Below, piece after piece: positions 1 through 15,950 of a stretch of DNA of 25,606 nucleotides. The translations under genes and the position numbers were made by a program. This stretch comes from a virus (taxonomy: Duplodnaviria > Heunggongvirae > Uroviricota > Caudoviricetes): positions 1 through 25,606 of the IMG/VR virus record IMGVR_UViG_648276669_000005, one strand, 5' to 3'. Below the pieces are notes generated by a model that was given only the letters and a program-made list of their open reading frames with translations, did no database searches and was not told the origin of the DNA. The first letter of the stretch is position 1, and each line of letters starts with the position of its first letter.

Positions 1-1053
1 TTACGGGGTAATGCCAACCGCTGCCGCCACTTTGTCGCCACTTGGCAGCGTTGCCAGAGGGTTGAAACGGAGCGCCGTTTCCAGATGATCCGGTGCCAGA
101 TGTGCGTAACGCATCGTCATTTTTATATCGTGATGCCCGAGAATTTTTTGTAAGGCCAGGATGTTTCCACCCGACATCATAAAATGCGCCGCAAACGTAT
201 GACGCAGAACGTGTGTCAGTTGACCGCGAGGGAGCACGATAGACGTTTTTTCCATCACGGATAAAAATTGAAAATAGCAGTCTTTAAAGAAATTGAACCC
301 ATCAAGTGCCATAATCTCTTCGTAAAGCTCTTTACTGATGGGAATGCTTCTGTTTTTCTTCCCCTTCGTTCTGACAAAGGTAATTCGGTATTTAGTCACC
401 TGTGAACGGGTAAGATTTATTGCTTCTCGCCAGCGTGCGCCTGTGCTTAAGCATATCTTGACTACCAGTGCCAGAATTGGGTCCTGACGTTTGCAATCAG
501 CCAGCAATTCAACAATCTGTTCATGGGTAAGCCATGCCATCTCTTTTTCTGCGATGGTGAATTTTCGCATGTTCTCCAGTGGGTTCGGATACGACCATTC
601 GCCCAGGCGGGATAGTTCGCTAAAAACACTACTTAGATAGCTTTGCTCCAGGTTAACGGTGACCGGGCTTGCTCCTTTCTTCCATTTTTCGCTGAAGTAG
701 ATCTCTCCTGTCAGGCGTTTATCTCGATAGTGGGCAAACATTTTAGAGGTGAGATCGGTTGCAATGGGATTTCCCAGAGCGTCAACCATCAACAGCAATT
801 TGTCATAGACATGCTGCCCAGCCGTCAGAGATTTACCATGTAGTTTGAACCATAGCTCAACCACGTCTTTCAGTGTTCGACGATCCACTGATTCACCCAG
901 CCAGGGTTTTGCTTCGGTTTCTTCCATCGTGTGACGCTCAAAAGCCAATGCTTCACCCTTAGTTGCAAACTGCTTACGCACACGCCGCCCATTGCGCCCG
1001 GCGGGGTAGCATTCACAAATCCATTTACCTGTGTTGAGTTTTCGTACTGCCAT
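1..1053 (-). CDS. int: P2/186-family tyrosine integrase
   Basis: 350 aa from first ATG (pos 1053, GAGGA RBS upstream); ORF-track start at 1080 is TTG. C-terminal HVLRH...HHDIKMTMRYAH fits the tyrosine recombinase R-H-R-Y catalytic pattern; resembles P2 Int as recalled. Stop at window pos 1-3, so att lies outside the window. Confidence 0.9.
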   Translation of the reverse strand: MAVRKLNTGKWICECYPAGRNGRRVRKQFATKGEALAFERHTMEETEAKPWLGESVDRRTLKDVVELWFKLHGKSLTAGQHVYDKLLLMVDALGNPIATDLTSKMFAHYRDKRLTGEIYFSEKWKKGASPVTVNLEQSYLSSVFSELSRLGEWSYPNPLENMRKFTIAEKEMAWLTHEQIVELLADCKRQDPILALVVKICLSTGARWREAINLTRSQVTKYRITFVRTKGKKNRSIPISKELYEEIMALDGFNFFKDCYFQFLSVMEKTSIVLPRGQLTHVLRHTFAAHFMMSGGNILALQKILGHHDIKMTMRYAHLAPDHLETALRFNPLATLPSGDKVAAAVGITP

Positions 1054-1135
1054 AAAAAAGTCCTCATGTCTGAGGACCAAATTTAACTGTATGTTTGAAC
1101 AGTGGTCAATGTTTAAAGATCTTCAATTAAACATT

Positions 1136-2467
1136 TCATTGGAGCAAGAAAACTTTTAAGGTGTTTTTGAATATTCTAACAGGGTCTTCTACACCTGCAT
1201 TTCCTTTTAAAATATGATAATCACTTATTTCAGCCCATCTGTTTTTTTCATCGTTTTCAGAAGGAAGTAAAGGAGAACCTTCTGGCATATATTTATAAGT
1301 TATACCAAATAATGCATAATAGTAGATGTTGATGTTATATTGATCTGTCTGATATGGGAGTCTATTAACACCGAAGAAATTGATTATTAATTGTGCATCT
1401 ATTTTATCTTCTACGTAGTTAAGGGCCAGTTCACGACCAAACGAATAAAGAATTACTGCAAGGGTTCGATAACAGCAATAGCCTGGTATAAATTTATTGC
1501 TGATTTCATTTTGAGATAAAATTTGATAAATTTCTAGATATCTTGATAAGGTTTCAACTTCCCGTAGCGACAAGCCTTTTAGTTCGATAAATTTTTGAAC
1601 TATATGAATACTACTTTCTCCAATTTCTTTTAGTCTTTCAGACTCGTTACATAGCATTCTAAAATGAGAGTTCGAAGCCAAAATTTTATCGTAATTGTTT
1701 TCAGTGAAAGTCACTGGCAGGCTGTAAGTGAATTTTATAAATTTATCAAGATATCTTTCTGAGTCAACACCTGCACCGTAAATATGATTTATTGATGCTT
1801 TCAATTGTGAGATGTTAGCAACTAACAAGAAGTTAAGATTTTCAGTGTCAAAAACATGTTTTATATTTTCGATGATAGAGATGGCAAAGCTTGGTTTACA
1901 ACGGTCAAGTTCGTCAATGATAATTGTTATTTTATTTTCGCTAGTTAGTTCAGCAAGTACTTCCTTGAGAGCAAGCAAATGTTTCTTTGCTTCAATATGA
2001 TCATCAAGCAGTGCTTCTACAGTACCATCTATAGCTGAGTTAGCCGCATCTTTAATAGCATCTTCGAATTCATCCGCAATATCATCTGCATTTTGTTTTA
2101 AAATCCACCCAGCGCCAGCTTTGAGTACAGTTTTAAGTCCAAATCTCAATGCTGGTAATGCCTTTGATATTAATTCCTTCTTTTCACTCTCTGGATATAA
2201 TGCAACTATTGCAGCCATTATAGTAAGTATGGGAGCATCATTATGATCTTCAGTAAATGCATCAATATATACTACTTTATGCCCAGATTCATTTTTTTCA
2301 ATCAATGCCGCTAATTTTTTTGAAAATTCGGTTTTACCGGTACCCCAGTCCCCATCGATAACAATAGGGGATATTTTTAAGGGGGACTCGAGTAAGCTTA
2401 TTATTTTTTCAGCAATGATTTTTCTATTATACTCATCTCTGTTTTCAAAAGTCATATCATTATTCAT
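1136..2467 (-). CDS. KAP-family-like P-loop NTPase (cargo gene)
   Basis: Walker A GDWGTGKT with the Trp typical of KAP NTPases, Walker B IIIDELDRC (KAP-type hhhhD[DE]LDR). No obvious TM insert. First ATG at 2467; 2476 is TTG. Strongly AT-rich relative to phage backbone. Confidence 0.6.
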   Translation of the reverse strand: MNNDMTFENRDEYNRKIIAEKIISLLESPLKISPIVIDGDWGTGKTEFSKKLAALIEKNESGHKVVYIDAFTEDHNDAPILTIMAAIVALYPESEKKELISKALPALRFGLKTVLKAGAGWILKQNADDIADEFEDAIKDAANSAIDGTVEALLDDHIEAKKHLLALKEVLAELTSENKITIIIDELDRCKPSFAISIIENIKHVFDTENLNFLLVANISQLKASINHIYGAGVDSERYLDKFIKFTYSLPVTFTENNYDKILASNSHFRMLCNESERLKEIGESSIHIVQKFIELKGLSLREVETLSRYLEIYQILSQNEISNKFIPGYCCYRTLAVILYSFGRELALNYVEDKIDAQLIINFFGVNRLPYQTDQYNINIYYYALFGITYKYMPEGSPLLPSENDEKNRWAEISDYHILKGNAGVEDPVRIFKNTLKVFLLQ

Positions 2468-2478
2468 ATGAAGCAACC

Positions 2479-5431: not shown

Positions 5432-6285
5432 GCACCATCCTGAAATGGGCGGGAAATAAAACCGCCGTAATGTCCGAACTGAAAAAACATCTTCCTGCTG
5501 GTCCGCGACTAGTTGAACCTTTCGCGGGTTCCTGTGCTGTGATGATGGAGACGGATTATCCCTGCTATCTGGTTGCGGATATTAATCCTGATTTAATCAA
5601 CCTCTATAAAAAGGTTGCCGCTGATTGTGAATCGTTTATATCTCGCGCCAAAGTTTTATTTGAGATCGCAAACAGGGAGGTGGCTTATTACAACATAAGG
5701 CAGGAGTTTAATTACTCAACTGAAATTACTGATTTCATGAAAGCGGTATATTTCCTGTATCTCAATCGTCACGGTTACCGTGGGTTATGTCGCTATAACA
5801 AGAGCGGGCATTTCAACATTCCCTACGGTAATTATAAAAATCCGTATTTCCCTGAAAAAGAAATTCGCGCTTTTGCAGAAAAAGCCCAGCGAGCAACGTT
5901 TATCTGCGCCAGCTTTGATGAAACGCTGGCGATGTTGAAGGCGGGGGATGTGGTGTATTGCGATCCGCCTTATGACGGTACGTTTTCCGGCTATCACGCT
6001 GACGGCTTTACTGAAGATGACCAGTATCACCTGGCATCCGTTCTTGAACATCGGTCATCAGAAGGACATCCGGCCATTGTTTCTAACAGTGACACATCCC
6101 TGATCCGTTCGCTGTATCGCAATTTTACTCACCACTATATCAAGGTAAAACGCAGCATCGGCGCAGTAGCTGGTGAGAGTAAATCAGCAACAGAAATCAT
6201 TGCTGTTTCCGGGCCGCGCTGCTGGGTGGGATTTGATTATTCGCGTGGCGTGGATAGTTCTGCCGTGTACGGAGTACGTGCATGA
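5428..6285 (+). CDS. dam: DNA N6-adenine methyltransferase (Dam-like)
   Basis: N-terminal LKWAGNK...EPFAGSCAV (AdoMet-binding motif) and catalytic DPPY motif ([10 protein letters not shown]); ATG 5428, stop overlaps A start (ATGA). Confidence 0.75.
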
Positions 6286-8696
6286 GCCATGCCGATATGA
6301 GCAACTGCTGCGGCTTTAACGAGGCTGCCGCATCGTTCTCATGGAACAGCCCGAAAAAGGCCATTAACCCTTATCTGGACCCGGCGGAAGTTGCGCCGGT
6401 TTCTGCGCTTTCAAACCTGATCACTCTGTACGCTGCCGATAACGAGCAGGAACAACTGCGCCGCGAGGCACTGAGTGATCAGGTCTGGGAGCGTTATTTC
6501 TTTAATGAATCCCGTGATCCTGTCCAACGCGAAATAGAGCAGGATAAGCTCATTAGCCGGGCAAAGTTGGCGCATGAGCAGCAGCGTTTTAACCCGGACA
6601 TGGTCATTCTGGCAGACGTCAGCGCCCAGCCCTCCCATATCAGCAAGCCGCTGATGCAACGTATTGAATACTTCAGCAGCCTGGGCAGGCCAAAGGCTTA
6701 TTCCCGCTATTTACGTGAGACGATTAAGCCATGTCTGGAACGACTGGAGCATGTACGCGACAGCCAGCTATCTGCATCTTTTCGTTTTATGGCAAGCCAT
6801 GTAGGGCTGGACGGCCTGCTGATTCTGCCTGAAATGAGTCAGGATCAGGTGAAACGCCTGTCTACCCTTGTCGCTGCGCATATGAGCATGTGCCTTGATG
6901 CAGCTTGTGGTGATTTGTATGCCACCGATGACGTTAAGCCAGAAGAAATCCGCAAGACATGGGAAAAGGTGGCAGCGGAAACCCTGCGTCTGGATGTCAT
7001 CCCGCCTGCGTTTGAGCAACTCCGCCGGAAAAGAAACCGCCGTAAACCCGTGCCCTATGAACTCATTCCGGGTTCGCTGGCGCGTATGTTGTGCGCCGAC
7101 TGGTGGTACCGGAAATTATGGAAAATGCGTTGCGAATGGCGGGAAGAGCAGTTGCGTGCTATCTGCCTGGTCAGCAAAAAAGCATCTCCCTATGTCAGCT
7201 ATGAAGCCGTGATGCATAAACGTGAGCAGCGCCGCAAGTCACTGGAGTTTTTCCGTTCTCATGAACTGGTGAACGAAGAGGGCGACACGCTGGATATGGA
7301 AGACGTGGTAAACGCCAGCAGCAGCAACCCGGCGCACCGCCGCAATGAGATGATGGCCTGTGTTAAAGGTCTGGAGCTTATCGCGGAAATGCGCGGTGAC
7401 TGCGCCGTTTTCTACACCATTACCTGTCCGTCACGTTTCCATTCCACGCTCAATAACGGCAGACCAAACCCAACCTGGACAAATGCGACGGTAAGACAAA
7501 GCAGCGATTATCTGGTCGGCATGTTTGCTGCATTTCGTAAGGCGATGCACAAAGCCGGGTTGCGCTGGTATGGCGTGCGGGTGGCTGAGCCGCATCATGA
7601 CGGTACAGTTCACTGGCACCTGTTGTGTTTCATGCGCAAAAAAGACCGCCGCGCCATTACTGCATTGTTGCGTAAGTTTGCCATCCGTGAAGACCGCGAG
7701 GAACTGGGTAATAACACTGGTCCACGCTTTAAATCTGAGCTGATAAACCCGCGCAAAGGAACGCCGACAAGCTACATCGCGAAATACATCAGTAAGAACA
7801 TTGACGGGCGTGGTCTGGCTGGCGAGATCAGCAAGGAAACGGGTAAATCCCTGCGTGATAACGCTGAATACGTTAATGCCTGGGCGTCTCTGCATCGTGT
7901 TCAGCAATTCCGCTTCTTTGGTATTCCGGGACGTCAGGCTTACCGTGAACTTCGCTTGCTGGCTGGTCAGGCGGCAAGGCAACAGGGTGACAAAAAAGCA
8001 GGTGCGCCGGTACTGGATAACCCGCGCCTTGATGCCATTCTGGCTGCTGCTGATGCTGGTTGTTTTGCCACCTACATCATGAAGCAGGGCGGCGTACTGG
8101 TTCCCCGCAAATATCACCTCATCAGAACCGCTTATGAAATCAACGAAGAGCCAACCGCCTATGGCGATCACGGTATTCGTATTTATGGCATCTGGTCACC
8201 CATTGCAGAGGGCAAGATCTGCACTCATGCAGTGAAGTGGAAAATGGTTCGTAAGGCCGTTGACGTTCAGGAGGCGGCAGCCGACCAGGGCGCTTGCGCC
8301 CCTTGGACTCGTGGCAATAACTGTCCCCTTGCTGAAAATTTGAACCAACAGGAGAAAGATAAATCAGCTGATGGGGACCCCAGAACGGACTTTACCCGCA
8401 TGGATGACAAGGAGTTGCACGATTACCTGCACAGTATGAACAAAAAGGAGCGCCGGGAACTGGCTGCAAGGTTACGCCTGGTGAAACCGAAACGGCGTAG
8501 AGACTACAAACAGCGAATTACAGATCATCAGCGACAGCAGCTCGTCTATGAACTGAAGTCCAGAGGATTTGATGGCAGCGAGAAAGAGGTCGATTTACTC
8601 CTTCGCGGTGGCAGTATTCCGTCAGGAGCAGGCCTGCGTATCTTCTATCGGAACCAGCGTTTGCAGGAAGATGATAAGTGGCGGGATCTGTATTAA
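6282..8696 (+). CDS. A: replication initiation endonuclease gpA (rolling-circle type)
   Basis: 804 aa; HUH-type metal motif (TVHWHLLCF) and tandem-tyrosine motif ([10 protein letters not shown]) characteristic of P2 A protein. Confidence 0.85.
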
Positions 8697-8849: not shown

Positions 8850-9038
8850 ATGCAGGACTATTTTTTGGAGTCTTTGAAGCTCCAGCGCATTGATTTTTTT
8901 CTTAAGCTTGTAGCGGCTAGTGAGTGTAGTGATGAAGAGAAGGGGCTGGCTCTGCAGTGGGTTTCTGAATTGACTGATGAACTCATGGCAAAAATCAGAA
9001 GCCACGAATACAACCGCTCAATGGATGTCATCAGCTGA
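8850..9038 (+). CDS. small SOS-operon protein, function unknown (possibly Tum-like antirepressor fragment)
   Basis: 62 aa from ATG 8850 with AGGAGG RBS; the longer ORF-track version (8748) would read through the LexA box and is rejected. Confidence 0.45.
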   Translation: MQDYFLESLKLQRIDFFLKLVAASECSDEEKGLALQWVSELTDELMAKIRSHEYNRSMDVIS

Positions 9039-9048
9039 GGTGACTTTT

Positions 9049-9282
9049 ATGCGCATTGAAATAATGATCGATAAAGAGCAGAAGATTAGCCAGTCTACAC
9101 TGGACGCCCTTGAATCCGAGCTTTACCGCAATCTGCGCCCCCTGTATCCCAAAACGGTAATTCGTATCCGCAAAGGTAGCTCTAACGGTGTGGAACTGAC
9201 CGGACTGCAACTGGACGAAGAAAGAAAACAAGTGATGAAAATTATGCAGAAGGTGTGGGAAGACGACAGCTGGCTGCATTAA
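9049..9282 (+). CDS. DinI-family protein
   Basis: 77 aa from ATG 9049 (GAGGTGA RBS); MRIEIMIDK...LDALESEL.R...P...VIRIRKG....ELTGL..EERKQVMKIMQKVWEDDSWL parallels E. coli DinI as recalled (MRIEV...IDALAGEL.RR...P...V.VRY....SVIG...EDKQRISEILQETWESADDWF). Confidence 0.65.
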   Translation: MRIEIMIDKEQKISQSTLDALESELYRNLRPLYPKTVIRIRKGSSNGVELTGLQLDEERKQVMKIMQKVWEDDSWLH

Positions 9283-9489: not shown

Positions 9490-9596
9490 TTACTAATAAT
9501 AACCTTACAATGTACACTACCGATTGAATTTTCCATAGTTGGCCTTTGGCTCTACTTACCATCTATGTTTATGTATTTTATCAAAATGGACTAAAA

Positions 9597-11489
9597 ATGA
9601 ACAATACGTACATCAAAGACTATATAGAATATTACCTTAGCCTTACAACTGAACCTCAATACGCCATTATGCTTAAAGGTGCTTGGGGATCAGGTAAAAC
9701 TTGGTTCATTGAACAAGTTCTTGAAGAATATAAGCAGAAGAATTCAGAGTTTAAATTTCTAAAAGTGAGTTTGTATGGCGTCAACTCTATTAAGCAGATT
9801 GAAGATGAGTTCTATCGTCAACTTCATCCTGTCCTATCAAACAAAGCCCTTATCTTTGGTGCAAATGTACTAAAAAATACGCTTAAGGCTACTTTCAAGA
9901 TCGATCTCAATGGCGATAATAAATCTGACGTTGATGTCAATACCAATGTTCCCACCATTAATCTTAACGATTTTAGTAGAAAACCAGATGGTTTTGTGCT
10001 GGTCTTTGATGATATCGAGAGAGCTGGTATAGATTTACCAATTTTATTTGGATATATAAACCACTTTGTAGAAGTAAACGGATACAAAGCGATCTTGGTT
10101 GCCAATGAAGAAGAAATAATCAATAGAGAAAAGCGAATAAATAATGATGATGAGAAATCTAGCAGCGAATATATGAGAACAAAAGAAAAGCTTGTTGGTA
10201 AAACATTTGAAGTAACGTCAGATTTACATAGTGCTTGTAATGTTTTTTTGGGCGTAATTAGCAGTTTACACGTTGCTAATATATTTAAAGAAGATATGCA
10301 GGCCATAGAAGACATCTATGTGTCGGCGAAATATAATAATCTAAGACACTTGAGGCAGTTCTTTCTTGATGTACAACGCATCATTTCCCTTTTGGGAAAT
10401 AAATATGTCAGCAACGACGATTTTATGAGGGTATTTTTCCAGCAGTTGTTAATTTTCTCGATAGAGTACCGGGGAGGGAACCTTAACTACGAGGATTTCG
10501 ATTCAATCAGCAATGTTAATTATGGTATGTTTTTAGGTAAAGAGCGTACCAAAACTAAGTATGACATGATCGCCGAGAAATATTCATCTCCTGTATTAAC
10601 CGAGAAGTTACTGGATGGTGCGTACTGGAGGGAGCTAATCTGTGATGGAAAGGTAACGAGTGAACTTCTCGCTCAGTTGGATATTACGCGATTTTTTAGA
10701 AGCACCGATGCCCAAGCATGGGAGTATTTGTGGAACTATCGAGAACTTAATGAAACTATGCTTAATGAGCAGTACGCCATTGCCAAGGATAATCTATTTT
10801 CAGGTAAGATCACTTCCTTAGGTGAACTCCTGATGACCGCGAGTATTTTGCTGGACATGGCGAAAGAAGGTCTAACAACAGATGATGTTCATGATCTCAT
10901 AAATGAGACAAAACAGAATATAAATAATTATTATAATAGACTTAGAGCTGAAGATATACATAAGGAATATGCGCAAACGCATTATAACGAATTAAGGGCA
11001 TGGCGTGGCTTTGGTTTTCTTGACAGGGATAGCGATGAATTCAAACTCATTATTGAGCATATTGAGATAGCGAAGAAGAAACGGTTTGATGAATCAATTC
11101 CGGAATTTGCGTTGCAGTTCAGCGATGAGTTGCAAAGGGGAAACTTATCGTTTGTATCTGAATTGAGTCATTCTAATAATAGGCAGTTAAATCTTCATAA
11201 CGTGCCTTTTTTACACTTGGTTCCTCCTGAAGTTTTCATTGAAAGCTATAGGAAACTTGACCCAGTCCTCATGAGGAAACTGGCATTTAGCTTGCGGAAT
11301 CGTTATTCTGATGGGGATGCTAGAACCAGACTGACCGAAGAATACAACTGGTTGATTAACCTAAAAGAGATAGCTGTAGATTTCACTCAAAACGCAGCCA
11401 ATAACTCCTTTCAGGTTTTTCACGTAAAGTTTTTTATTGACTATGTACTAACTAGCGCAATCAAATTCTTTACTGAGGGAACTGATTAA
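9597..11489 (+). CDS. KAP-family-like P-loop NTPase, 630 aa (hotspot cargo; candidate defence protein)
   Basis: Walker A GAWGSGKT (KAP-type Trp), Walker B VLVFDDIERAG, large C-terminal region without recognisable motifs. First ATG at 9597; track start 9546 is TTG. AT-rich. Confidence 0.6.
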   Translation: MNNTYIKDYIEYYLSLTTEPQYAIMLKGAWGSGKTWFIEQVLEEYKQKNSEFKFLKVSLYGVNSIKQIEDEFYRQLHPVLSNKALIFGANVLKNTLKATFKIDLNGDNKSDVDVNTNVPTINLNDFSRKPDGFVLVFDDIERAGIDLPILFGYINHFVEVNGYKAILVANEEEIINREKRINNDDEKSSSEYMRTKEKLVGKTFEVTSDLHSACNVFLGVISSLHVANIFKEDMQAIEDIYVSAKYNNLRHLRQFFLDVQRIISLLGNKYVSNDDFMRVFFQQLLIFSIEYRGGNLNYEDFDSISNVNYGMFLGKERTKTKYDMIAEKYSSPVLTEKLLDGAYWRELICDGKVTSELLAQLDITRFFRSTDAQAWEYLWNYRELNETMLNEQYAIAKDNLFSGKITSLGELLMTASILLDMAKEGLTTDDVHDLINETKQNINNYYNRLRAEDIHKEYAQTHYNELRAWRGFGFLDRDSDEFKLIIEHIEIAKKKRFDESIPEFALQFSDELQRGNLSFVSELSHSNNRQLNLHNVPFLHLVPPEVFIESYRKLDPVLMRKLAFSLRNRYSDGDARTRLTEEYNWLINLKEIAVDFTQNAANNSFQVFHVKFFIDYVLTSAIKFFTEGTD

Positions 11490-11553
11490 CTTTTTGTTGA
11501 TTAACATAGGCAATATTATTAGAAGTACTAGGGATAGTCAGTAAAATTATTAA

Positions 11554-11590
11554 CGTCCGCTTCGCTCAAAGCGGACTTTGTGCTTTATAA
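11554..11590 (+). terminator. rho-independent terminator after the NTPase gene
   Basis: gtccgctt-cgctca-aagcggac perfect 8-bp stem-loop followed by tttgtgcttt. Confidence 0.55.
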
Positions 11591-11774
11591 AAACGAGAGT
11601 TTTGTTTTTCAAGCGGTCATTCGGTTACGGGATTTCACTTCCCCCGTAAGTGCATGACTATGCCGCATGAGATCGCATGATCGTTTGCGGATCGTTTTTG
11701 CTAAGGCACGCCAGAACTGGTGGGATTTTGCGTAGATCATGCGCCTGCATGAAAACCGCTACATAAAGCGGGCA

Positions 11775-11793
11775 GGCGTGGCGGGGATACGAG
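11775..11793. other. candidate cos site (cohesive-end sequence of P2/186-type phage)
   Basis: ggcgtggcggggatacgag followed by cgcgcgct; closely resembles my recollection of the P2/186 19-nt cohesive ends (GGCG[A/T]GGCGGGGAAAGCA[C/T]) followed by a GCGCGC element. From memory only. Confidence 0.4.
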
Positions 11794-11919
11794 CGCGCGC
11801 TTAAGGATGAATTGAAGTTGATTTAATTTTTCGACATGGATAATCTTAACTACGTATGATTATTGATAAAAAATAAACATAAACAATTGTAGCGGATCTT
11901 AAAACTTATTAGGATTAGT

Positions 11920-12975
11920 ATGCTTAAAACAAATAAGGTATTTATTGACACACAAACGTACGTAAAGGCTGGTCTTCATTTTGAGGGGGTAGCATTTAAA
12001 GCTTTCCATGAATTATGTGCGAAAGGTGATTTAGTCTTAATTACAACTACAGTTGTAGAGAGAGAAGTAAAAGGTAAAATAGAGGAATCAATAAAGGATG
12101 CTCTGCAGGCTATAAACACAGTACAAAGAAAAGCTAGGCTTTTGAATAGTATTGATAATGGACCGCTCCATGGTTTTTTTCAGCAATTTAACGAACATGA
12201 AATTCACGAAGCAGCACAAAAAGTTTTTGATGATTTTTTGAAAGGATGTCACGCCAAATTAGCTACAATAGAAGTGATAGATCTTAATGAGGTTTTAGAT
12301 AAATACTTTGGCAAAGAACCACCATTTGGGCAAAATAAGAAAAAAAGTGAGTTTCCTGATGCAATCACTTTAGCTGCGGTAGAGCGATTTGTTAATGATG
12401 AAGATGTGTATATCATTTCTGAGGATAGTGACTTAAAAAATTATTGTGATGGTAAAAACAATCTTCATCAAATTGATTCACTTGATAAGTTTCTAGGTGA
12501 ATACAATACGCATACAAACGAATTAAGTAATAAATTGATGCAGTTTATCGAAAGCAAACGTGAAGACATAAGAGCGGACGTAATTGCCCAACTCAATGAT
12601 GCCGATGGATATAACGTTTCAACTTGGGAAGACGCTGAATTGGATTCATTTGAAGTCGTCAATATTGATGACTTTGAACCATCAATAATTAAGATTGACA
12701 ATAATTATTGTCTAGCGACCTTCTCTGTTTCTGTAGATTTTGAAGTTACTGTTTCTGGTCCAGACTTTAATAATGGGTATTGGGATAGCGAAGATAAAGT
12801 AATGATTCCAATGGAGACAACCACACGAACTGAAGTTCAAGAGATTAGTTTCGATATTGAAATTGAAGTTATGTATGAAATCGAGGATGGTGAATTAACA
12901 GATATCGCATTTGATGTGAATATTGATAAGTTATCCCGAGGGATTGAGTTCTCTATTGAAGAAAATAATTTTTAA
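11920..12975 (+). CDS. hypothetical protein with N-terminal PIN-like nuclease fold and acidic C-terminal domain (cargo)
   Basis: 351 aa; N-terminus KVFIDTQTYV (PIN motif-1-like hhhDT), VVEREV, later DAITLAAVERFVNDEDVYIISEDSDL giving the spaced acidic residues of PIN domains; C-terminal third very D/E-rich. AT-rich with own AT-rich upstream region. Confidence 0.45.
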   Translation: MLKTNKVFIDTQTYVKAGLHFEGVAFKAFHELCAKGDLVLITTTVVEREVKGKIEESIKDALQAINTVQRKARLLNSIDNGPLHGFFQQFNEHEIHEAAQKVFDDFLKGCHAKLATIEVIDLNEVLDKYFGKEPPFGQNKKKSEFPDAITLAAVERFVNDEDVYIISEDSDLKNYCDGKNNLHQIDSLDKFLGEYNTHTNELSNKLMQFIESKREDIRADVIAQLNDADGYNVSTWEDAELDSFEVVNIDDFEPSIIKIDNNYCLATFSVSVDFEVTVSGPDFNNGYWDSEDKVMIPMETTTRTEVQEISFDIEIEVMYEIEDGELTDIAFDVNIDKLSRGIEFSIEENNF

Positions 12976-12993
12976 TATTAATTCGTTCATAAC

Positions 12994-13020
12994 GGCATCA
13001 TTGTGATGCCATTGGGTTTT
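12994..13020 (+). terminator. stem-loop terminator between convergent PIN-like gene and Q
   Basis: ggcatca-ttg-tgatgcc perfect 7-bp hairpin followed by attgggtttt. Confidence 0.45.
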
Positions 13021-14044
13021 ATAATGTATATATTTCAAAATTTATAATTTCATGACCAAGCCATCTGTTTATTTCCATGAATCTTTTTTGAAGTGGTAAT
13101 AGTTCATTTCTTACGAAGACGCAGCTCGCCTTCTCCACATCACCAAAACCCCCAACATTATTCGGCAAAATTCCCATCATCTGAGGCGGTACGCGGTGTG
13201 CCGCCATCATGTCATCACGGCTGACGTTCTTGATGTTCAGAAATTCATCCTTCGCCGCGACTTCTGACAACGGGATGATCTGAAGCCCGTCCTTTTTGCC
13301 GTTAGGCGAGTACATAAACAGGTTGCGGAAGTTGCCAGGGCCTTTGGCGCTTTTCATCGCATTGCGGAGGTTGTTCACATCCTCCTGGTTCTGCGCGGCA
13401 TCGGTCATGTACATGATGAAGCCTGCATGGCTGCCGTTAATGTAATACTTCCGGCGGAACAGCGTGGCGGACTCGTTGAGCAGGGCTGACGGAATGGCAG
13501 AAAGATAACCTGGTAGGCCGTAGATCTCCTGGTTGATGTCAGGTTCCATCAGATGAAAAATGCTGCCTTTCGTGAACTGATACGGCTGGGTTGTCATACC
13601 GTATTGCACAAACCAGTAGGTATCCAGGTCTAACCCGCGTCGGGTGTATTTTGCCAGCGCAGGCTCAAGGGCGATAACTTCACCGAAGCGGTTCGTGCGT
13701 TTCTCCAGGTAGGCGTTACCAAATACCAGGTAGTCCTGCACAAAACGTGAAAAAGCCTGCTGACTGAGCAGCGGGTGAGGGATATAGGTACTGGTCAGAA
13801 TGTTGCACTTTACTGCAATCGGGGAACTGTGATGCACGGCAGCGCGGAAGGTGCGCGCCAGTCCGTCAAAGCTGACGGGCGGCTCATACCAACGGTCCAT
13901 CTGTACGCATTCCACATAGTCCAGTAATTCTCGGCGGTCCAGAACAGGAACGGGATCGCCGAAGCTGAATGCTTCGGCTGTAGTTTGACTTTTAAGCTGG
14001 ATCTGATTCGTCGCCGCAGCGCGGTTCTTCTTACTCTTTCCCAT
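13019..14044 (-). CDS. Q: portal protein gpQ
   Basis: 341 aa, matching P2 Q (about 344 aa) in size and position, convergent with hotspot and upstream of terminase; ATG 14044 overlaps P stop. Confidence 0.85.
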   Translation of the reverse strand: MGKSKKNRAAATNQIQLKSQTTAEAFSFGDPVPVLDRRELLDYVECVQMDRWYEPPVSFDGLARTFRAAVHHSSPIAVKCNILTSTYIPHPLLSQQAFSRFVQDYLVFGNAYLEKRTNRFGEVIALEPALAKYTRRGLDLDTYWFVQYGMTTQPYQFTKGSIFHLMEPDINQEIYGLPGYLSAIPSALLNESATLFRRKYYINGSHAGFIMYMTDAAQNQEDVNNLRNAMKSAKGPGNFRNLFMYSPNGKKDGLQIIPLSEVAAKDEFLNIKNVSRDDMMAAHRVPPQMMGILPNNVGGFGDVEKASCVFVRNELLPLQKRFMEINRWLGHEIINFEIYTL

Positions 14045-15808
14045 CAAAAAATCTCCACAATATTGCTGGCATTGGCGGATTCGCCCTGCAGCGGTTCGTT
14101 AAACAGTGCGTGCATCGTTGCCCAGGCCAGATCGGCGTGGCTGGCTTCTTCGCTGCGGCTGGCTTCATAGGTCGGGCGGTTGCCGCTGGCGGTGGTAGCG
14201 CGACGGATTGCCATAAATGATTGCGCAATGTCGGTGTGCCCGGCGTCAAACTCCAGACGGCGGTGGCTGATAATGTCGTAGGCCTTGAGCACCAGGGCGT
14301 TTTTAACGTTGGGGTTGTAGACAAACTCCCGGACGGCAGGAAAGAATGCTTTCACGTTCTCGTAAACCCCGTGACCAACGCCGGTTGAGTCGATACCGAT
14401 ATAAGTCACGTTGTACTGTTCGGTCAGTTTTTTGATGGCGTCAGCCTGAGCGCGGAAGTCCATCCCGCGCCACTGGTGACGCTCAAGAATGCGGAATTTA
14501 CCGCCCGGTACGGCTGGCGGTGCCACCACCACGCATCCGGCACTGTCGCCGTTCTGAGTACCTTTTGCGGGGTCATAACCGATCCATACTTCGCGCCAGC
14601 CAAACGGGCGCAGGGCCAGTGCATGAAAGTCGGTCCAGACTTCCCAACTGTCCACCATGCACGCCTGCAGTTCGCTGAGCGGGAACACGGACGCGAGATC
14701 GTCCACGAACTCACACATCAGCAGGTTCTGGTATTCGTCCGGGCTGTATTCCATGCGCAACTGGTCAAGGTCGAACAGGTTACAGCCGCCGCGCACCGCA
14801 TCTTCCACGGTGACTATCTGGCGGTATTGTCCGTCTGCGCACAGCAGGCCGGGGGCCAGATTGCTGTGGGACAGGTCGATGTCCACCTTATCGGCTTTGT
14901 TGCGCCCACGGTTGAACAGCGCACCGGACCAGAACGGATAAGCACTGTGTGTCAGGCTGGATGGCGTGGAAAAATAGGTCTGTCGCCATTTTTTGTGAAT
15001 AGCCATACCGGAAGCCACTTTGCGCAGCTCCTGGAATTTCGGTATCCAGAAATATTCATCCAGATACAGGTTGCCGTGATAACTCTGGGCCGTGCGGGCA
15101 TTGGTGCCGAGGAAGTAAAGCGTGGCCCCGTTAGGAAGCACCATCGGATCGCCTTTCAGCTCCACCTCCACTTCTTTAGCGAAGTCGATGATGTACTGCT
15201 TAAAGACGTGGGCCTGTGCCTTGCTGGCGGAAAGGAAAATCTGGTTACGTCCGGTAAGCAGAGCGTCAATCAGGGCTTCACGGGCAAAGTAAAAGGTCGC
15301 GCCGATCTGGCGTGACTTCAGCAGGTTGCGGATGCGGTTGGTTTTTCCGGCTTCCCACCAGTGGCGCTGGTAGTTGAACATGGAGGAATGGAAGATTTCT
15401 TCCAGCTTCTCAATCTGCTCATCGGTGAAAACATTCTTTTCCGGCTGACGGCGCGGGCCTTTGTTGCGGTTGGCGACGTTAGGGTTTAAGTCGGCTTCGT
15501 TGCCGCCATTGTTAAACTTGCCGATCCGCGCGTGGCGTTCCGACTGGCGCGCCAGCAGGTCAATCTCTTTGAAATCTTTCCCTTCTTTGTGCTCCTTCAT
15601 AATGAGCTGGCAGTAGCGTGCGGCGGTGGTGAGCTGCATCTGATCCAGCGGCCCATAGTCACCCCACTGCGCGTTTTTTCCAGCTGTGAACGGTTGCAAC
15701 TTTCTCGCCCAGCATTTCAGCAATGCGGGCTACGCGGTATCCCTGAAAGTACAGCAGCATGGCCTGCCGACGGGGATCGAGATCTGCGGGTGTCAGTGTG
15801 GTGTTCAT
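14044..15808 (-). pseudogene. P: terminase large (ATPase) subunit gpP with apparent +1 frameshift near 15674-15679
   Basis: Frame A from ATG 15808 encodes MNTTLTPADLDPRRQAMLLYFQGYRVARIAEMLGEKVATVHSWKKR, matching recalled P2 gpP N-terminus, then stops; frame B (ORF 14044-15723) carries the remaining 559 aa. Frames switch at an A6 run (T6 on plus strand). Could be a sequencing error. Confidence 0.8.
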
Positions 15809-15854
15809 GGAACAAACCTACAGCCTTGAATGAAGGCTTTCCCCGCCTGCGGTT

Positions 15855-15872
15855 TGTGTGGTTGTCGGTACA
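15855..15872 (+). promoter_or_regulatory. late-promoter activator (Ogr/Delta-type) site, TGT-N12-ACA, upstream of O
   Basis: tgtgtggttgtcggtaca in the P/O divergent intergenic region, centre about 85 nt upstream of O ATG, as expected for a site centred near -55. Confidence 0.45.
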
Positions 15873-15950
15873 AATACCGCGCATTGTTTCACTGCCCCTA
15901 TCACCGCAACCATAAGGCTCCAGTAAGTTTTTTCTAACGGAGCACGGCTC

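Follow-up and report, generated by a model that had tools for sequence, protein, structure and literature searches.

A PIN_12-family gene between cos and the portal gene of a P2/186-like prophage: a candidate stand-alone anti-phage nuclease

The prophage, its cos site and the PIN gene

The window analysed here, a 25,606-nt stretch (IMG/VR record IMGVR_UViG_648276669_000005, positions 1–25,606), is a P2/186-like prophage. It opens with an integrase gene (1–1080, minus strand), followed by the cI repressor, CII and Fil genes, replication gene A (6282–8696) and DinI (8977–9282); further along comes the portal gene Q, beyond which lie the terminase gene P and then the capsid, lysis and tail genes. 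The interval between DinI and Q holds two AT-rich plus-strand genes, one for a 647-aa KAP-family NTPase and one, starting with ATG, for the 351-aa protein that is the subject of this report. The region singled out in an initial annotation of this DNA (11775–13020) runs from cos through the end of Q. Feature coordinates are collected in Table 1.

Table 1. Features of the interval around the PIN gene
Feature	Position	Strand	Remarks
KAP-family NTPase gene (context)	9546–11489	+	Cargo on the other side of cos, in the DinI–cos half of the hotspot; PADLOC PDC-S49 (single-gene candidate), E = 2e-160
cos region	11746–11801		19-nt cohesive-end sequence at 11775–11793; cargo starts directly past 11800
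Sigma-70-like promoter candidate, TCGACA-18-TATGAT	11831–11860	+	10/12 consensus match, pattern match only
Shine-Dalgarno-like AGGA	11911–11914	+	5 nt ahead of the ATG; read from sequence
CDS, 351 aa, PIN_12/DUF4935 family protein	11920–12975	+	RefSeq WP_000920990.1-like "PIN domain-containing protein"
VapC-type PIN domain with helical inserts, residues 1–185	11920–12474	+	Putative catalytic D10, E49, D147, D169 (plus D171)
Two long helices joining the domains, residues 186–228	12475–12603	+	AlphaFold secondary structure H188–212, H214–227
Very acidic all-beta family-specific C-terminal domain, residues 229–351	12604–12972	+	Motifs STWEDAE, GPDFNNGxxDxED, GIEFSxEE
Terminator candidate between the convergent PIN and Q genes	12994–13010	+	Hairpin GGCATCA-TTG-TGATGCC, then ATTGGGTTTT
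Portal gene Q (context)	13019–14047	-	Pfam Phage_portal; right-hand limit of the cargo slot falls in its final ~30 nt

Elsewhere in the window, a second KAP-family NTPase gene (1136–2476, minus strand; 446 aa, 33% GC) lies between the integrase and cI repressor genes and matches the PADLOC candidate PDC-S20 (E = 1e-171). Three separate AT-rich cargo modules are therefore present in the prophage: the PIN gene and the genes of the two NTPases, PDC-S49 and PDC-S20. The terminase large-subunit gene P (14044–15900, minus strand) is apparently disrupted at its 5' end, where stop codons stand ahead of a 559-aa ORF; P has 588 aa in relatives, and the matching assembly (L092) calls pieces of 531, 49 and 31 aa. 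Judging from this disruption, the prophage may be defective.

The initial annotation had proposed 11775–11793 as cos, an assignment that agrees with the known sites and with conservation in related contigs. The 19-mer reads GGCGTGGCGGGGATACGAG, compared with GGCGAGGCGGGGAAAGCAC in P2 and GGCGTGGCGGGGAAAGCAT in 186, and is identical to these at 14/19 and 15/19 positions, respectively. Over the 56 nt from 11746 to 11801 the identity to the P2 cos region is 79%, and the conserved flanks extend ~29 nt on the A side and 7–8 nt (CGCGCGC) on the Q side. Among 15 related viral contigs whose flanks were compared, the 19-mer and the adjoining CGCGCGC are essentially invariant (isolated substitutions only), after which the sequences diverge. 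The cos core motif occurs once in each of 77 related phage contigs.

As the initial annotation observed, the PIN gene is AT-rich (33.8% GC, versus 50% in Q, 56% in P and 53% in A) and converges on Q. It had also been credited with its own promoter and a hairpin terminator. Both are present, but as consensus-level matches only: promoter-like sites are no more numerous in the region than in shuffled sequence, and the hairpin is unexceptional by the same comparison (folding z-score -1.0). The identical 351-aa protein appears in 975 blocks of the assembly collection; among 5426 complete E. coli genomes, 36 encode it. The window protein ends ...EENNF; some ~99%-identical copies (L093, L094 and L096, compared at 12970–12975) end ...EENNFEY and are thus two codons longer (353 aa).

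Cargo on the two sides of cos

The gap between cos and Q is 167 bp in P2, where it holds only the terminator tQ, and 176 bp in 186. This is the short, non-coding spot that the initial annotation described for P2, and from which it concluded that a gene here would occupy an unusual cargo site. That conclusion did not survive the comparison across P2-like phages which the annotation itself had proposed. We collected 80 viral contigs (IMG/VR, L093–L172) with a portal protein at least 94% identical to that of the window; 77 of them extend to cos and were used to measure the gap. Cargo is present between cos and Q in 75 of these loci and absent from two, with gaps of 180 to 3521 bp; the loci show ~50 distinct arrangements, and their cargo proteins fall into 64 clusters. 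The interval is, moreover, part of the gpA–gpQ hotspot of P2-like phages described by Rousset et al. 2022 (PMC9122126). The site is therefore a known and busy one, empty in P2 and 186 themselves.

Nearly all cos–Q cargo genes are oriented toward Q, as is the PIN gene, and comparison of the flanks of related loci indicates that each cargo carries its own hairpin. Identity between relatives ends 7–8 nt past the cos 19-mer (after CGCGCGC; 11794–11801) on one side and within the last ~30 nt of Q (13019–13050) on the other. These sharp boundaries mean that cos splits the gpA–gpQ hotspot into two slots, which appear to assort independently. Because the Q-side slot begins 7–8 nt from the cos cleavage site, its cargo would lie at the very tip of the DNA that is packaged.

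The Q-side slot is dominated by known defence families. We found AbiU/AIPR, retron RT-Toprim, TIR, AAA_13, DprA, GmrSD, Cap4 nuclease and SieB, as well as Schlafen-like, S8 peptidase plus AAA, SEFIR and OLD-Toprim cargo. Three of the 64 clusters are PIN_12: that of the window protein, seen in 4 loci, and two variants of 367 and 376 aa. At L168:2583–4239 (minus strand) the gene for the 376-aa variant, a diverged member, is followed by one for a 170-aa protein that neither Pfam nor PADLOC matches, and together they may be a two-gene form of the system. Only 25 Pfam families are recognised at E up to 1e-5, none of them in more than three of the 64 clusters. Most clusters are therefore unmatched, including the multi-gene cassettes C15–C17, C40–C42 and C56–C58, and they make a compact list of defence candidates.

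The window gene has the features of hotspot cargo: it lies between A and Q, adjoins cos and varies among near-identical phages, occurring in only 4 of the 77 with a portal at least 94% identical. In this it resembles the P2 gpA–gpQ cargo already described (old, tin, retrons, DprA-PRTase), which belongs to the same locus class, is likewise AT-rich and is swapped between near-identical phages (PMC9122126), although old and tin are on the A side of cos and the PIN gene is on the Q side. The initial annotation was thus right to regard the gene as cargo, that is, as horizontally acquired and not as a conserved structural component of related phages. We reject a structural or packaging role in view of its presence in 4 of 77 relatives.

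Rousset et al. list PIN_12 arrangements, including WP_000920990, in their Table S5, and PIN_12 is absent from the systems they cloned (PMC9122126). The same study reports that hotspots also hold non-defence genes, such as partition systems and toxins, a point against the defence reading, as well as anti-defence genes. Anti-defence cargo, and the position of the gene in a phage genome beside the late genes, would suit a protein that helps the phage itself, in its lytic cycle or in counter-defence; once the prophage is induced, it could for instance break down nucleic acids of the host or of competitors. We regard this as very unlikely: near-identical phages mostly do without the gene, which comes with a promoter-like site of its own and runs against the late operon, and its relatives are common outside any phage context, on plasmids, ICEs, integrons and chromosomes.

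The initial annotation allowed for a PIN nuclease working either alone or with the upstream NTPase. In the second case the PIN protein would be the effector of a two-gene system and the KAP-family NTPase its sensor or motor. The two genes are adjacent in the window, on the same strand and both AT-rich, and a "KAP_NTPase + PIN_12" arrangement appears in Table S5A of Rousset et al. (PMC9122126). Yet cos separates them, and the NTPase gene has a terminator-like hairpin of its own (11555–11576). The identical PIN protein adjoins the portal gene in every place read. Opposite it, the DinI–cos interval contains nothing (13 places, the commonest state), a 239-aa HNH-like gene, either of two pairs of unknown genes (387 + 178 aa and 71 + 203 aa) or the KAP NTPase. 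The NTPase is found in only one of six distinct arrangements holding the identical PIN protein and is absent in NZ_AP022650, so that the two genes do not consistently co-occur. This variable content, the match of the NTPase to a single-gene PADLOC candidate and its own terminator together indicate that the PIN gene and the NTPase are separate modules. The two-gene system is largely refuted by the co-occurrence data, and we reject it as extremely improbable. Of the two options first offered, "alone" stands, whereas partnership with the NTPase falls to the finding of the same protein with five different contents across cos.

A two-domain protein family and its relatives

Pfam PIN_12 (PF16289, the former DUF4935) matches residues 7–171 of the window protein with 90.9 bits, against a gathering cut-off of 32 (E = 1.6e-25), and the match covers profile positions 1–171 of 172. 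The initial annotation had recognised a PIN-like N-terminal domain and had suggested a DUF4935-like profile search and structure prediction as a check. The profile it named proved to be the exact family, and the predicted structure is a VapC-group PIN fold with four to five conserved acidic residues. According to Matelska et al. 2017 (PMC5499597), DUF4935 proteins belong to the VapC group of PIN domains, have a long helical insert after strand 2, are ~350 residues long with an uncharacterised alpha/beta C-terminal region, and are encoded by monocistronic genes. All of these features are seen in the window protein, whose gene stands alone among varied neighbours; the 2017 account assigns the family no function and no mobile-element or defence context. 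Relative to the VapC toxins of VapBC systems, the window protein is ~2.5 times longer, has an extra C-terminal domain, shows 9%–16% sequence identity and has no VapB-type antitoxin gene.

A database search returned 160 homologues; among those listed, nearly all are 343–389 aa and align to 93%–100% of the query, which places both halves of the protein within the family. In an alignment of 34 sequences the invariant positions include D10, E49, KKKxEFPD147A, D169 and D171 in the N-terminal half, and N232, W236, G280-P281-D282, D289, E291, E314 and E348 in the C-terminal half. D10, E49, D147 and D169 are invariant even in relatives only 16%–24% identical, which argues for selection on the active site. 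PADLOC-DB 2.0.0 has no family that matches the PIN protein at E up to 1, and Cosus (see below) and other PIN_12 variants are unmatched there as well. NCBIfam and PHROGs gave no functional match, a PDB sequence search with the family profile gave chance-level matches only (E ~0.5), and a BFVD search yielded one full-length viral look-alike and nothing further.

The C-terminal domain is very acidic, as the initial annotation had described it: residues 229–351 contain 32 D+E and 5 K+R, with a pI of 4.05. We searched a profile of this domain against 1.84 billion representative proteins. The search found 277 clusters, nearly all of them proteins of ~345–385 aa with the domain at ~187–355, or pieces of these. 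Only one protein, of 494 aa, clearly departs from this pattern: it has a HEPN N-terminus (RiboL-PSP/MAE_28990), and its residues 376–482 match the C-terminal domain (hhalign probability 95%, E = 2e-8). Its gene lies 15 nt downstream of a GmrSD_N (DUF262) gene (metagenomic locus L180:132–2818), and the fusion is represented by this single protein on a 3-kb metagenomic contig. The same domain is thus attached to two unrelated RNase-type effector folds, a pairing that, on the strength of one metagenomic protein, is consistent with a regulatory or sensing role. A bolder reading, which we consider less likely than not, is that the domain is a dedicated infection-sensing or auto-inhibitory module coupled to unrelated PIN_12 and HEPN RNase effectors, together with a hotspot split by cos into two independent slots. 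Were this true, immune proteins that combine "sensor plus RNase" in a single chain would form a class of their own.

The relative most informative about function is Cosus (Brc24), a single "PIN12"-domain protein from an integron cassette that confers complete resistance to T7 (bioRxiv preprint 10.1101/2024.07.02.601719). The preprint's Brc24 sequence is machine-read and rich in frameshifts, and its N-terminus served only to find a clean copy, ALG87191.1 (382 aa), on the IncC plasmid pKAZ2. This copy is a PIN_12 protein (E = 2.4e-36) and shares 30% identity with the window protein across the N-terminal 235 aa (BLASTP E = 2e-18). The family HMM aligns to residues 10–360 of Cosus (E = 3.5e-30 in a two-sequence search), so Cosus includes the C-terminal domain, and the homology is full-length, extending over both domains. 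The two proteins share PF16289, a two-domain layout of ~350–380 aa, the KKxEFPDA motif, equivalents of D10, E49, D147 and D169, and an existence as single genes on mobile elements. The mutagenesis primers of the preprint likewise encode the family signature motif, ...GKDKKNEFPDA.... The two proteins differ in that the C-terminal domain of Cosus is much more diverged, a G takes the place of D171, and the carrier is a class 1 integron on a plasmid as opposed to the cos–Q slot of a prophage.

Of 11 Cosus mutants reported, which include those at the EFPD aspartate and at the equivalent of D169, strong impairment is reported only for T12A, D14A and D96A, where protection falls from >10^5-fold to ~100-fold, a loss of ~1000-fold (10.1101/2024.07.02.601719). 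Cosus D14 aligns with D10 of the window protein, the aspartate of its FIDTQ motif. Escape from Cosus D14A was mapped to the T7 tail protein gp12 (10.1101/2024.07.02.601719). With only three strong mutants and escape in gp12, the case for canonical catalysis by four PIN acids is unproven even in Cosus.

Members of the window protein's own subfamily are ~40%–56% identical to it. Relatives occur in 230 of ~185,000 species genomes, spread over many phyla. A P2-like prophage of Pantoea has a 54%-identical PIN_12 copy in the same cos–Q slot. In Pantoea sp. RIT-PI-b (L179, 3073–6065) the slot contains a 197-aa gene, a 367-aa HTH_3/Peptidase_M78 gene and the PIN_12 gene, and the M78/HTH gene ends 58 nt before the PIN gene; its product could be a regulator or a separate system. 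A Salmonella relative, carried in an ICE, adjoins AAA_15/21 and HNH genes, and a P. aeruginosa relative adjoins an AbiTii gene. The only match in deposited phage genomes, from Enterobacter phage ENT4 (41% identity), was set aside because its surroundings differ and include no P2-type portal.

On IncX4, IncC and other enterobacterial plasmids, a distant branch of the family occurs in a pair with AbiH (WP_011264072 and WP_011264071). On pEC111 (L083:4914–7056) a gene for a 393-aa PIN_12 protein is followed 1 nt downstream by an AbiH-family gene; the pair is conserved on many resistance plasmids, lies beside mcr-1 in pEC111, and looks like a two-gene defence candidate. Its PIN_12 member has the same C-terminal domain as the window protein (family profile E = 5e-58) and a defence context, but is only 25% identical to the window protein and is paired, whereas the window gene is solitary.

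Function and implications

The initial annotation saw in the PIN nuclease a plausible toxin or defence effector, and the protein might act in prophage maintenance or addiction, or as a selfish toxin, kept neutral by its own C-terminal domain or an unrecognised factor and with no anti-phage role. The VapC-like fold with its intact acidic tetrad would fit such a protein, as would the 11% fitness cost of strongly expressed Cosus (10.1101/2024.07.02.601719). The surroundings of the gene point the other way. There is no same-strand ORF of at least 20 aa between cos and the ATG, there are no tandem or direct repeat arrays in 11480–13120, and the locus has no Rfam match, so no antitoxin-like partner is visible. 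A VapBC module would show an adjacent small antitoxin gene, and here the upstream neighbours differ between genomes; a type III (ToxIN-like) module would show tandem RNA repeats beside the nuclease gene, which are likewise missing. Since the slot is dominated by defence genes and a homologue gives phage resistance, we judge a role purely as a toxin to be distinctly improbable.

Protection might also be exerted by means other than nuclease chemistry, with the acidic C-terminal domain binding a structural or injection component of the phage and blocking genome entry, and the PIN fold serving as a scaffold. The gp12 escape from Cosus D14A and the several acidic-residue mutants with no reported defect (10.1101/2024.07.02.601719) lend themselves to this explanation, and the C-terminal domain is both strongly conserved and highly charged. 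We nevertheless think it unlikely in view of the invariance of the four canonical PIN acidic residues across very divergent members; a cytoplasmic protein with no predicted membrane segment would, moreover, be an odd injection blocker.

The explanation we favour, at somewhat better than an even chance, is that the PIN gene encodes an anti-phage nuclease of the PIN_12/Cosus family that acts on its own and is exchanged as cargo in the Q-side half of the P2-type hotspot. It draws on what is established here: family membership, fold, the intact acidic tetrad, independence of neighbours, the defence-rich slot and full-length homology to Cosus. Partnership with the KAP NTPase, addiction, protection without catalysis and service to the phage itself all have less support than a stand-alone defence nuclease. 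The initial annotation's proposal of a PIN nuclease as a plausible defence effector thus holds up as plausible, with a slot occupied mainly by known defence genes and a homologue, Cosus, that blocks T7.

A stand-alone defence nuclease of this kind would be a self-contained, horizontally swapped module that most likely protects the lysogen against other phages. Its N-terminal VapC-type PIN domain would be an endonuclease that depends on metal ions and most probably cuts RNA. The acidic C-terminal beta domain may keep the nuclease inert or set its target, and an infecting phage would then supply the trigger that releases it.

None of this overturns current understanding, as both the hotspot and the PIN_12 family have already been described. 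If the protein does defend its host, however, the known range of the Cosus/PIN_12 family would grow beyond integron cassettes to include a prophage family that is among the most widespread in E. coli, and the protein would offer a compact, single-chain model for a PIN nuclease restrained without an antitoxin. The gap between cos and the portal gene, empty in textbook P2 and 186, is rich in defence candidates that are easy to mine, and many of its 64 clusters lack annotation.
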